Positions 11,350 through 62,640 of a stretch of DNA of 64,000 bases are shown in pieces (the stretch's first letter is position 1; each line of letters begins with the position of its first letter). This DNA is from Eledone cirrhosa (taxonomy: Eukaryota), in the NCBI GenBank assembly GCA_964016885.1, contig OZ024740.1:313534001-313598000 (forward strand). Reading direction: 5' to 3'. The notes below the pieces were generated by a model, which saw only the letters and a list, made by a program, of their open reading frames with translations, was not told the DNA's origin and did no database searches. The position numbers and the translations under genes are program-made.

Positions 11350-11691
11350 TCTTTGTTGAGTTATTGTCATAGCTCTGTTTTGAACGGCATGGTTGAGTTC
11401 CATTAATAAATGCATATTTACCTCATAAGCAACTACTATACAATCTATAACAAAAGTTATATTTACATATTAGAACAGATTCATGGATATATAAACAAAG
11501 AATTGATCCCTTAAGTTGTCACTCTACCTGCTAGAAATAGTAATAAGATCCATCTCAAATTTCACACTAACACCTTAAAGTTATTTGGTACTTGACTTCC
11601 ATTATATATATATATATATATATATATATATATATATATATATATATATATAATATATAAGATCAAAAGATGGTTAAAAGAGTTCCATGTA

Positions 11692-11758
11692 TTTTATTAT
11701 GCGCATTTCAAAAACAAATATCATCATGCAATAACATTTGCTTTTTCGTCAGATAAAA
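11692..11758 (-). ncRNA. Type I hammerhead ribozyme (PLE pLTR, family B)
   Basis: Reverse complement reads TTTTAT-CTGACGA-helix II-GAAA-TGCGCA-TA-ATAAAA. Confidence 0.85.
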
Positions 11759-12752
11759 TAGGGAGACATGATATGAAGGTTAAAACACACTTGTGAATAG
11801 TGCAGTTTTAAATCAACATATGAAAAGTAGTTTTAGATTGATGTGTGATATTGGGAAAAAATTGAGAGGGGTGGGTGGGGGTGGGGGGTGGAAAGGATGA
11901 AAAAGAGGAGGAGATGAGAGTAAAAAGTGGAGGGGGAGGAGTATAATGAGGAAGGATGAAATAGGAGGAGAGATGGGTGATAGAGAGAGAGAGGTAGCTT
12001 TTATAACTGAGAAAAATATATTGTTTTACATAGAGAGGTTGAAAAACCGTTGGAAGATAATATATAAATTAAAAGAATTTGAAAATTAACGAAGAGAAAA
12101 ATTTTAGAATAATGTTAAATTAAGGTTTGTATATTTAAGGGTTTAATAATATGTGCGATGAAAAGAAATTGTTAATATGTATTAAGAATAATATTTAAGG
12201 GTTTAATAATATGTACGATGGAAAGAAATTGTTGATATGTATTATTAAAAAATATAAAAATATAGCAATAGTAATGTAATTAAGGATATATTGTGAAAGA
12301 AGTAGAAGAGAGGATGAATAAGTGTAATATGTATAAGTTAGATGAGCATGAAAGGGAGAAAAAAATAATGAATTGAGGATGAATAATCTAACGTCAAAAA
12401 AGTGTTTATGTTTACGAAGGATTTTTTTAAGGTGATATAAAGTAAGAATATATTGTGCTGTGTAATAATTGTTTCTACGTTAAGCACAATGATAATTGAG
12501 AAGTGTCTAGGAAGAAAAGGTACAGATTAGAGGTTCGAAATTAAAAGAAAGAGAAAAGAAAAGAAAAAGGAAAAAGAAAGAAAGGGAAGTGATAAATAGG
12601 AGTGAAATAGAATGAGTAACTAGTATTATATAATGTATAATAAATAGCATTGAAATAAGGTAGAAAGATGGGTATATTTTAAAGGAAATATATATGTATA
12701 TATATATATGTGCCTTTGAGAAAAGGATTTTAAATTGGTAAAGTATTAGATA

Positions 12753-14113
12753 TTAGCTGTATACTTTATGGAATATTCTGTGGAATTTATGCAAGCAGAG
12801 AGAGAACAAGTCAGTGTGTCTATTTATTATAGAATCTAAATTAGATATAATGGTAAATTTTAACATAAACAGAGATTGTATGTCTTGGATAGAGAACTGT
12901 TCAAGTATGGGGAAGCAGAAGAAACCTTTTTCCAAGAGATGTTATAGTTAATATTTTTGTCTTTCAAGGACCATATGAGTTCTGAGAGTGCCGTGTTGGT
13001 TCCTTTAAGTTGATATTTAAAAGACGAATGATGATTATAAAGACGAGCTTTAAAGGAGGTGGAAGTGGAGCCAAAATAGGTAAAGGAATTGGTGTCAGTT
13101 ATAACTTTACATTCGTAGATTAAGTTCTTTTCAAGACAATGGTTGTTGAGAGGACATTTATTTTTAACAGGGCAATTGCAATTGCGTTTAGAGAGATTAA
13201 CAGAGTTATTAACAAGCGACCTAGTGTTATCTATAGAAGAGATTGGATTGGAGAAGTTATTTACGATAGGAATAATAGTTTCTTGATTTAGAATGGGATT
13301 AAGAACATTTAGCGAAGGTGCGTTTGACGTTGTATTTGGGTTTGCAGAAATTAGCCTAGAGTTAACAATGACGTCGGGAGTACTATTACTATTATTATGA
13401 TATTCAGTGTTGGAAGGAAGAGATTTAGTATTTAGTATTTTATTGTTGTGTTTAGAGATAATGTTGGAGATGTTGGAGGAGGTCGAATAGGAGAATTCTA
13501 TAGTGTGTTTGTTAAATATTTTACTATAGATATGTGAGGGAGGGAAGCATTTATTTAAGGCACTAAAGAATAATTAGGAATATTATTATTAATAGAGATG
13601 GAGAAAGGAGCATTATACCAGATTATGTTTTTGTATCTAGGTCTTTTATTAAAGTTATTGGAAGGATCATGATTAATTATTCTACTGTAAGATCTTCTAG
13701 AATTTGTTTCTTTACTATATTTGATTTTATCAGGATAACCGGCTTTAGAAAGCGCGTTATTATAGTAATTGGCGTTAGCATCAAAGATGTTTTTATTAGA
13801 AGATAGGTTAGATATTCTTTTTCCAATATTACTAACTATAGCATTCTTAATATTAGTGGGGTGGTTAGATTTAAAATTAACATAATTTAGGTTCTCATTG
13901 TTTTTATCGTAAGGGTAATATAGGCCAGTGTCAAGATTAAGAGATACATCCAAGAAATTAGCTAGTTTGATGCTGTTATCAAATTCAATTTTTAAGTTAT
14001 GTTGGTTAAAGAGATTACGTTCTTAATAATATTAAGGTTAATTATGTTGCAATTTAAGATAGTAAAGAGTCCATCGTCACGATAAATTCCACCGCGAAGT
14101 TGAGGAATTTTCC
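12753..14113 (-). pseudogene. PLE polyprotein remnant: RT C-terminal half, Cys-rich linker and GIY-YIG endonuclease
   Basis: RGGIYRDDGLF; FLDVSLNLDTG..KSNHP; IIWYNAPFS; NCNCPVKNKCPLNNHCLEKNLIYEC..TYFGSTSTSFKARLYNHHSSF..TALSELIWSLK; NLCL..CLH; several frameshifts. Confidence 0.9.
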
Positions 14114-14663
14114 GATTCATCCTCTCTTCTACTTCTTTCACAATATATCCTTAATTACATTACTATTGCTATATTTTTATATTTTTTAATAATACATATC
14201 AACAATTTCTTTCCATCGTACATATTATTAAACCCTTAAATATTATTCTTAATACATATTAACAATTTCTTTTCATCGCACATATTATTAAACCCTTAAA
14301 TATACAAACCTTAATTTAACATTATTCTAAAATTTTTCTCTTCGTTAATTTTCAAATTCTTTTAATTTATATATTATCTTCCAACGGTTTTTCAACCTCT
14401 CTATGTAAAACAATATATTTTTCTCAGTTATAAAAGCTACCTCTCTCTCTCTATCACCCATCTCTCCTCCTATTTCATCCTTCCTCATTATACTCCTCCC
14501 CCTCCACTTTTTACTCTCATCTCCTCCTCTTTTTCATCCTTTCCACCCCCCCCCTCTCAATTTTTTCCCAATATCACAGATCAATCTAAAACTACTTTTC
14601 ATATGTTGATTTTAAACTGCACTATTCACAAGTGTGTTTTAACCTTCATATCATGTCTCCCTA

Positions 14664-60562: not shown

Positions 60563-61210
60563 ATATATATATATATATATATATATATATATATATATAT
60601 ATATATATATATATATATATATATATATACACACATATATATATATACACACATATATATATATATACATATATATATATACACGCATATATATATACAC
60701 ACACACACATATATATATATATATACATATATATATAAATATATATATATAAATGCATATTTATATATATATATACGCATATATATATACATATATACAC
60801 ATATATATACACACATATATATATATATATAAATATACACACACATATATATATACTCACATATATATACATATATATATACATACATATATATGTGCAT
60901 ATATATATACATATATATATACATACATATATATATATATATATATACATATATATACATATATACATATATACATATATATATACATATATATACATAT
61001 ATATATATATATATATATATATATATATATATACATATTTATACATATATATATATACATATATATACATATATATATATATATATATACATATATATAT
61101 ACATATTTATATATACATATATATACATATATATCTATACATATATATACATATATATACATTTATATATATATACATATATATATACATATATATACAT
61201 ATAAATGTAT

Positions 61211-61961
61211 TTAATATGTCCAATATACCCCTAGAAATACATAGGTTGTCTATGATTAAAGGTTGTTCAATGGTATTAATTTGACATACCAGAACTATAA
61301 TATTAAGATAAGCAGAACAAGCAAAATTTAACGAATTTTTTAAAATAAATTAAAAAATATAATATAAATATTTACCTCTTCTAATGGCCCTTACTGATCA
61401 GTTTCGCTTTGTAAAACACCAGAAATCCAATGGATTTCTAATGGAAAACCAAAGTTCATCAGCGAAGCATTTTCCTTTCCTAGGGCTAAAGACCCAGGAA
61501 CGATAAAATATATCGCCTACTGCCAGCTAACCCGGATCTAATAAGGTCGAAAAGGTGACCCGTATGTGAACTGGTCTGAAGTAAAAGCGGGAAAATCAAA
61601 GACGTGTTGTCTATATTACTACTAAAAAAATAGCAGCTAAATAGAACAACGGATTTGTTCTCTACATAACGGAGGATAATAAATGAAGTTAATATGTCAA
61701 AGGGTACTAAGTACCCCTAGAAATACATAGGTTGTCTATGATTCTAGGTTGTTAAATGGTATTAATTTGACATACCAGAACTATAATATTAGGATAAGCA
61801 GAACAAGCAAAGTTTAATCAATTTTTTAAAATAAATTAAAAAATATAATATATATATCTTCTAATGGCCCTTACAGGTCAGTTTCGCTTTGTAAAACACC
61901 AGAAATCCAATGGATTTCTAATGGAAAACCAAAGTTCATCAGAGAAGCATTTTCCTTTCCT
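61211..61961 (-). mobile_element. Family D partial tandem (about 480-bp period) with two HHRs, at 61384-61470 and 61864-61950
   Basis: Direct repeat; reverse complement reads CTGATGA-actttg..caaagc-GAAA-CTGATCAG-TA; (TA)n lies on both sides. Confidence 0.8.
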
Positions 61962-62133
61962 ATATATATATATATATATATATATATATATATATATATA
62001 TATATATATATATATATATATATATATATATATATATATATATACATATATATATACATATATATACATATATATATATATATACATATATATACATATA
62101 TATATATATATACATATATATATACACATATAT

Positions 62134-62640
62134 ATAGAAAGATTTGAATGGATACAGTTTAGTTGAAAGGAATTTATTGACACGTGTTTCTATAACAGTT
62201 ACATAACCTGAAAACAGCTGCTATCTACAAAGTTTTAGTTATGCAGACATTCAATATTTCAAAATTCTCACTGCTATCAACAAACCACTCCCTCAACTAT
62301 TCTTCTAACAACTTCACCCCTCCCTCCTAATATTCTCTATAAAAACCAAGTAGGTCCTCAATAATATTATTCTGATGAAATGACAGTAAATAATAACATT
62401 GAAATATTGAATGTCTGCATAACTAAAACTTTGTAGATAGCAGCTGTTTTCAGGTTATGTAACTGTTATAGAAACACGTGTCAATAAATTCCTTTCAACT
62501 AAACTGTATCCATTCAAATCTTTCTATTTTTCTCCGGATTACTTTTGGAACTACAACTGGAACCGTCGAGCAAACTCTACGTGAGCTGTCAATCTACTGT
62601 GTGTAATATTTATATTACAATACAACGGAAAATACTGTAT
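62134..62640. mobile_element. Fold-back element (family I) with perfect inverted arms of about 128 bp
   Basis: Arms at 62134-62261 and 62400-62527, plus a right tail of about 110 nt; (TA)n flanks. Confidence 0.88.
62367..62487 (+). ncRNA. Type I HHR with long helix II (family I)
   Basis: TTATT-CTGATGA-aATGACAGT...(long)...ACTGTTATa-GAAA-CACGTG-TC-AATAA. Confidence 0.7.

Follow-up and report, generated by a model that had tools for sequence, protein, structure and literature searches.

Penelope-like elements (PLEs) that encode an endonuclease (EN) are known to leave insertions in which an inverted, 5'-truncated copy is accompanied by a one-sided tail of 30-40 bp (PMC8557442; PMC3846280). Mobilisation by PLEs has also been proposed in print for animal retrozymes of the non-LTR (long terminal repeat) kind (PMC7229834; bioRxiv 10.64898/2026.07.22.740005), and both the origin of the inverted PLE copies and tails and the mobiliser of animal retrozymes are stated as open questions in this literature. 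Here, we analyse a 64-kb stretch (C1:313534001-313598000, hereafter the window) of the 3.0-Gb genome of Eledone cirrhosa, in which TA runs make up 7% of the sequence and in which coding PLEs and non-coding hammerhead repeats, among them a 310-bp retrozyme, share one footprint, namely, two arms placed back to back in (TA)n with their outer ends at two sites. It is likely (roughly 70%) that a PLE-type enzyme generates this footprint by priming from both cut ends of the target at two sites of one RNA.

Six of the seven loci described below resemble EN-bearing PLE insertions, as these are portrayed in the published accounts, in orientation, one-sided tail, microsatellite target and 5' truncation, but Hydra-type tails here measure 83-114 nt and the pairing of one long with one short end, which is counted here, is nearly absolute. 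For the Poseidon element of Anolis, purified PLE protein cuts and extends both strands in vitro and starts at two internal sites (PMC11167929); this activity, together with the AT-rich target and a tail defined by the two starts, parallels what we infer here. In that work, the two sites are not assigned one to each target end, non-coding templates do not feature and there is no homology at the start, whereas here a 1-8-nt match shifts the register. The described animal retrozymes (PMC7229834; bioRxiv 10.64898/2026.07.22.740005) are, like the array in the window, tandem AT-rich non-coding units of ~310 nt with a type I hammerhead. The case for PLEs as their mobiliser was argued from co-occurrence, ribozyme type and terminal homology, and the main texts report no inverted arrays: ‘inverted’ occurs zero times in one of the papers and only in a reference title in the other, and ‘tail’ is not used in the text of bioRxiv 10.64898/2026.07.22.740005. 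The Chlamys PLEs of Chlamydomonas, as described in PMC8557442 and PMC9977147, likewise comprise autonomous/non-autonomous pairs that insert into microsatellites, some of them head-to-tail, but there the 3' sequence is shared with the partner, and no such match was found for the retrozymes here. For two PLE types of a rotifer, a lack of cross-mobilisation has been reported, as has mobilisation in trans through terminal repeats (PMC3846280). Our literature search, outside of which most subscription journals lie, returned no paper reporting this footprint for retrozymes. Thus, the six coding loci show known PLE behaviour, the longer Hydra tails excepted, whereas the seventh is a counted PLE footprint on a non-coding retrozyme.

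A preliminary description of the window had listed seven tail-out fold-backs in (TA)n, and all seven proved real when checked by self-comparison of the window and end alignments. In each, the left arm is minus-sense, the right arm is plus-sense and one of the two has a longer 3' end, the sense being fixed by the reading frame of the parent element (families B, I, F42 and F52) or by the hammerhead (the 310-bp array, A310). We refer to the two alternative 3' end sites of a family as its long end and short end, and to the stretch between both as the tail. The loci are those of family B (11653-14861, 43748-44100 and 58479-60561), F42 (42050-42935), F52 (52881-53503), A310 (54887-57643) and family I (62136-62640), and their arms are as follows:

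11653-14114, minus strand: family B left arm, a 5'-truncated Hydra-type PLE with a broken reverse transcriptase (RT; YRDD) and GIY-YIG frame, 3' untranslated region (UTR), hammerhead at 11706-11752 and short end
14115-14861, plus strand: family B right arm, with hammerhead at 14670-14724 and tail at ~14770-14861 (long end); shorter than its short-ended partner arm
42050-42301, minus strand: F42 left arm, long end with a tail of 90-100 nt, the start of which is approximate; the 3' end of a coding Hydra-type PLE
42302-42935, plus strand: F42 right arm, short end; no complete hammerhead by the descriptor; aligns to the 3' UTR of the coding copy L238 at 86% identity
43748-43930, minus strand: left arm of a diverged B subfamily, with tail (long end)
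43930-44100, plus strand: right arm of the diverged B subfamily, short end
52881-53103, minus strand: F52 left arm, short end; the 3' end of a coding Neptune-like PLE
53104-53503, plus strand: F52 right arm, with hammerhead at 53116, an unrelated repeat inserted at ~53214-53404 and a tail of ~38-40 nt (long end)
54887-56040, minus strand: A310 left arm, 3.7 identical units, long end (phase 299)
56036-57643, plus strand: A310 right arm, 5.2 identical units, short end (phase 268), sharing a 5-nt microhomology with the left arm
58479-59639, minus strand: left arm of a family B copy, with tail (long end)
59659-60561, plus strand: right arm of that copy, short end, with hammerhead at 60462
62136-62262, minus strand: family I left arm, short end
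62263-62640, plus strand: family I right arm, long end with a tail of 114 nt; hammerhead core only; aligns to the 3' end of the coding Hydra-type copy L132 at 98% identity

Measured tails agree with the lengths first given: 31 nt in A310 (~31 nt; unit phase 299 versus 268), 83-92 nt in family B (~90 nt), on the right at 11653-14861 and on the left at 43748-44099 and 58479-60561 as claimed, and 114 nt in family I (~110 nt). The 35-nt tail ascribed to a ‘family H’ is probably that of F52 (~38-40 nt). The fold-back placed at 42154-42933 is present, its extent now corrected by the left tail, which reaches ~42050. Two general statements held in part. The short end does not always fall in a TA-rich tract, being a pyrimidine run with a 3-nt match to the flank in family I; and a hammerhead, thought to be present in every family, is complete in B, F52 and the 310-bp unit, reduced to the core in the window copy of I and without a match in that of F42, as judged by a descriptor of the type I motif that gave 0 matches in 20 shuffles. 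Rfam returned no hammerhead at the gathering score and none among the best 150 of 200 matches at E<=5. An eighth (TA)n fold-back, with a left tail of ~60 nt, lies at 24410-24968.

Judged by their sequences, six of the seven loci are 5'-truncated copies, made in cis, of four coding PLE families, three Hydra-type and one Neptune-like, because B, I, F42 and F52 each run upstream into their own PLE coding region, with a PLE-type RT and a GIY-YIG EN contiguous with the repeat (in F42, the EN and linker only). The broken frame of family B in the window has a 771-amino-acid counterpart in L135 (L-numbers denote individual genomic loci sampled); family I continues into RT and EN frames (L131-L134); F42 has a 1.6-kb UTR followed by EN and linker, with no RT core seen; and F52 has RT and EN pieces in L231-L233, with a CX4CxxC linker followed by YVGQT. 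Pfam missed the B frames and gave a single weak GIY-YIG match, on a related family. We assign B, I and F42 to the Hydra type by motif table and alignment. B and I share DKT, CxCX5C, a C-terminal CxH and the (TA)n target with the Hydra clade as described in PMC8557442, the supplement of which (File S1) lists Hydra-1_Obim, an octopus Hydra family in (TA)n; B also has an RLRW motif, the description of the clade naming one of RWK type, and F42, which fits the motif description only in part, aligns with B and I. This likeness is by motifs, not by tree, and unlike that clade, I and F42 are without a complete hammerhead by the descriptor and the F42 linker is decayed. F52 is classified as Neptune-like from its linker motif (CX2-5CxxC) and the position of the EN C-terminal to it. 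The Naiad type, invoked in the preliminary description, has an N-terminal EN, whereas the EN follows the RT in B, I and F52; the clade is hence Hydra or Neptune-like. EN identity among B, I and F42 is 31-41%, and the F52 EN barely aligns to those three, which, given that each family has its own coding region, points to at least four enzymes, acting in cis, and not to the one enzyme mobilising many non-coding RNAs that had been proposed.

For the coding families, the 30 best loci per family were sampled from 813, 1167, 276 and 112 candidates, with a family B query that favours tailed copies. Fold-backs with one long and one short end account for 7/8 in B, 8/8 in I, 8/8 in F42 and 12/14 in F52. 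Two discrete 3' ends per family, as anticipated, were found; for instance, 34/34 distinct arms of family I end at two sites, all in microsatellite. Two features of F52 stand apart. In about 10 of the 30 loci (within L144-L170), an arm starts at one position, which lies upstream of the ribozyme cut by ~70 nt, and the arms often form a near-perfect palindrome; copies extending that far were favoured by the query, and the position may mark where a short non-autonomous RNA begins. At many F52 long ends (L143-L166), (TC)n or TATC units separate the end from (TA)n, which may reflect either target choice or reiterative addition by the RT. Another Hydra-type PLE family is represented in the window by an RT fragment on the minus strand at 1527-2124.

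The seventh locus, A310, appears to be a non-coding hammerhead retrozyme, the only one among the seven. In line with the definition of non-LTR retrozymes (head-to-tail units of 150-450 nt, each with a type I hammerhead), every 310-bp unit carries the ribozyme; its longest Met-started frame has 30 amino acids, and no PLE protein match lies inside the arrays. Two features of one unit are central to what follows:

56228-56270, plus strand: type I hammerhead, with a 6-bp stem I, 4-bp stem II, palindromic stem III and predicted cut after GUA at 56264
56320-56435, plus strand: putative conserved initiation region, with a covarying hairpin, the short site at ~56394-56403 and the long site at ~56429-56436

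Stem III is palindromic in the B, F52 and A310 hammerheads alike; palindromic hammerheads cleave as dimers. A similarity search of the DNA with the 310-bp unit gave no matches and missed even the window's own copies, its words probably being too common, and patterns were used instead. One variant of the ribozyme has 1369 exact matches in the genome. On the forward strand, end patterns gave 742 long and 573 short ends (reverse counts are inflated by overlapping matches), from the former of which we estimate roughly 1,500 young insertions. Among sequencing runs, no RNA run was listed for the unit; it was recovered as contigs from four runs of unknown kind, and in three of these it forms a single closed loop of 340 nt, as either tandem DNA or a circle would.

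The end sample comprised the first 100 entries of the long-end list and of the short-end list in C1:1-128 Mb. The 67 long and 49 short ends obtained form 40 tail-out pairs, every one of them long with short (40/40; p=2e-12 against 0.5), with the long end on the left in 17 and on the right in 23. The 36 unpaired ends resolve into 26 further long-and-short fold-backs, eight single arms, one case at an assembly gap and one with its far end outside the fetched stretch, so that the 76 insertions include 66 fold-backs with unlike ends and none with like ends. Combined with variable junctions, this does not resemble the symmetric terminal inverted repeats and fixed target-site duplications named at the outset as contrary evidence. 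A second sample, blind to the ends and taken by the ribozyme motif, comprised 12 arrays with the same two sites and TA flanks, except for one end in a gap. Single arms adjoin the microsatellite at random 5' ends; therefore, the target existed beforehand.

Two further non-coding families of the window, both absent from the preliminary description, carry the same footprint:

45073-45185, plus strand: stub of a 315-bp sister retrozyme, ending at its short site
49107-49219, minus strand: second stub of the 315-bp sister retrozyme
61201-61960, minus strand: tandem non-coding repeat of ~480 bp, with a hammerhead-like core that the type I descriptor does not pass; two ends ~105 nt apart in other copies

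The sister family (~315 nt, 75% alike, older, 591 candidates) ends at two positions homologous to those of A310, although its short site has no TA tract, and at least eight of 30 loci are long-and-short fold-backs. Its ribozyme module is unlike that of the 310-bp unit, the start sites being shared; A310, the sister family and F52 have in common a U-U pair at the base of stem II. The 480-bp repeat, unrelated to A310, has 1997 candidates, and of the 24 loci examined, two of which are the window's own copy, 16 are long-and-short fold-backs. The initial proposal that PLE machinery, two primings and a (TA)n target move non-coding hammerhead RNA in trans is thus supported for the 310-bp family and for two families that it had not listed. 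The hairpin just upstream of the short site is kept in 12 diverged copies (92% of cells paired, five cells changed on both sides, a level reached in 0/500 shuffles); as these copies are related to one another and also supplied the structure, this conservation with covariation is suggestive only.

These data bear on the earlier form of the model, in which the transcript runs out of the source copy into adjoining (UA)n, pairing of this RNA end with the target primes the long end, and an internal TA tract sets the short end. A read-through RNA ending in the flank would be compatible with the long site, and in L128 an identical pair of variant units stands first in both arms, as though synthesis had started at the terminus of a single linear transcript; moreover, the 310-bp short site contains an 8-nt TA tract used by many copies, and two family I arms beside TC repeats end 7 nt later. 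However, the long site is internal: in the tandem B copies L007 and L017, the sequence runs on beyond it to the next open reading frame, every 310-bp unit likewise extends beyond its own, and the register of the long end (294-301) differs among copies of one haplotype. The short site keeps its position even where the TA tract is missing, and microhomology of 1-8 nt, as in the family I arms just mentioned, shifts the register by a few bases and does not set the position. In L241, furthermore, a variant common to both arms lies in unit 3 of one but in unit 17 of the other. We therefore regard priming at the RNA end as unlikely, and priming at two internal sites as the better description of both ends.

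Arm composition is informative about the template. The majority haplotype is the same in both arms of 37/38 arrays with two long arms, compared with 154/1406 cross-array pairs (18 haplotypes), and the arms therefore derive from one RNA or one source locus. Shared haplotypes, as well as the mirrored variants of L128, would also follow from a single priming in which the complementary DNA (cDNA) or an antisense template primes on itself and copies itself as the second arm, joined at an internal TA tract; such a fold-back has been put forward for palindromic inverted PLE junctions (PMC3846280). A self-copy can, however, neither exceed the length of its template nor bear a tail absent from it, whereas the long-ended arm is longer in 28/49 complete fold-backs and shorter in 21/49. 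Similarly, at 11653-14861 the longer arm is the short-ended one and includes coding sequence missing from the other arm. Given that either arm can be longer, simple self-copying is excluded as a general route; it is an improbable account of the footprint as a whole and may explain part of F52, where junctions cluster at a near-palindrome.

The 5' ends of A310 arms are uniform across the unit (p=0.65), only 3/106 lying near the predicted ribozyme cut, and the template was therefore probably a circle or an uncleaved (linear) multimer, both of which would be compatible with the arrays. In 44/49 arrays no minority variant is shared, and each of the 18 haplotypes runs through whole arrays, the pattern expected from a monomer bottleneck. 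Mosaics occur in L128, L241, L254, L259, L267 and L239/L240, as predicted by a linear multimer, template switching or later unequal crossover; L239/L240 has a 45-unit (14-kb) arm with recurring variant units, partly repeated at a 27-unit distance. That arm, and the five other arrays of 49 with minority variants shared among units, are what would be expected if the 310-bp unit were the terminal repeat of an unseen coding PLE, inserted as short stubs in cis and then amplified in tandem at the DNA level with conversion between arms, and local amplification of PLE termini has been proposed by Li et al. (2026). We give this scenario little credence: PLE protein matches in the fetched loci lie outside the TA-bounded arrays, both arms exceed one unit in 40/49 fold-backs, with only 51 private changes in 585 units, and the sister family, at 75% identity, retains both sites. 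DNA transposons or miniature inverted-repeat elements with terminal inverted repeats, or assembly fold-back artefacts, would account for the overall palindromic shape and for the lack of a readable target duplication in (TA)n, but the ends are asymmetric and fixed, the interiors vary, the parents encode an RT, the outer flanks are not mirrored and the arms of older copies differ by 2-5%, which makes this explanation extremely improbable.

Priming from both target ends at two sites of one RNA would proceed as follows. The GIY-YIG EN would cut both strands within the pre-existing (TA)n; the two DNA 3' ends would then start synthesis at different sites, one upstream and one downstream, giving the strict pairing of ends; both cDNAs, on one RNA or on transcripts of one locus, run for random distances and beyond the ribozyme cut, as the 5' ends of the A310 arms show; and, paired through 1-5 nt at their 3' ends, each cDNA would serve the other as template for second-strand synthesis. 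Consistent with the last step, junction overlaps of at least 2 nt are seen in 27/53 cases (two of them local duplicates), compared with 18% by chance. In L1 twin priming, too, synthesis is primed from both ends of the target, and microhomology joins the cDNAs; there, the second priming site is variable and the arms do not overlap, whereas here both sites are fixed and the arms overlap. Between two retrozyme arms of L254 (2099-2370) lie 272 nt of the 5' region of a long interspersed nuclear element (LINE), unrelated to the retrozyme; its 39 further best matches are confined to 19-24 Mb of C25. This insert fits a template jump. It had been considered as the partner PLE and was rejected, the sequence being that of a LINE.

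The 310-bp retrozyme would be carried in trans by a partner PLE, which is likely Neptune-like because the A310 tail measures 26-40 nt. Across three non-coding and four coding families, tail length appears to place A310 and the 315-bp family alongside the Neptune-like F52, and the 480-bp repeat alongside the Hydra-type families. We put forward tentatively, as rather less probable than the two-site priming itself, that a dimeric PLE RT routinely places the two target ends on a single small circle of retrozyme RNA, at two sites defined by structure, and copies it by rolling, each array representing one circle, and that separate retrozyme lineages parasitise separate PLE clades, readable from tail length (26-40 nt for Neptune-like, ~105 nt for Hydra).

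Several observations weigh against priming by a PLE enzyme at two sites. No partner PLE was found when 18 clusters downstream of PLE endonucleases were compared with the three non-coding units, and the similarity of PLE 3' regions to the 310-bp or 315-bp units did not exceed that of shuffled sequences. Transcription, self-cleavage and circular RNA of A310 are predictions, and the A310 end patterns require a TA flank, so that this sample alone cannot demonstrate TA preference. Arm lengths are uncorrelated (rho 0.12) and hence lend no support to two enzymes moving in step; the remaining junctions include inserts (13/53) and blunt joins (4/53). F52 has one ambiguous like-ended pair (L161), and the pile-up of its near-palindromic junctions at one spot fits self-priming equally; some F42 ends lie off-site (L034, L039 and L050).

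Within the partner search, one match exceeded shuffles, that between family I and the 480-bp unit (0/200 shuffles); it is AT-rich, out of register and one of 15 comparisons. Raised z-scores for F52 and L251 disappeared on trimmed sequences with 200 shuffles, and weaker ones for L294 and L232/L180 come from the untrimmed comparison only. L186/L251, in which a 310-bp arm lies beside a Neptune-like PLE, was considered as a hybrid insertion and rejected, as a gap of 200 N separates the two. With respect to the open questions on PLE tails and retrozyme mobilisation, A310 provides a rule backed by counts (a long end paired with a short end, and a single haplotype) as well as a candidate cis element of 115 nt, each of them testable with the existing in vitro PLE assay.

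The window contains other repeats. Additional hammerhead cores are located at 48990-49045, which passes the full descriptor, 32522-32566, 9857-9880 and 30740-30766. Near-perfect hairpins of ~80 nt with no clear tail are present at 18082-18160, 27131-27212, 30140-30221 and 50809-50882. A tRNA-like sequence (Rfam, 31383-31453) is embedded in an inverted repeat (31254-31527) that adjoins a TA-bounded fold-back at 31540-31786. Finally, a 214-bp element is found in three direct copies between TA runs (2223-2436, 25434-25726 and 50537-50748).

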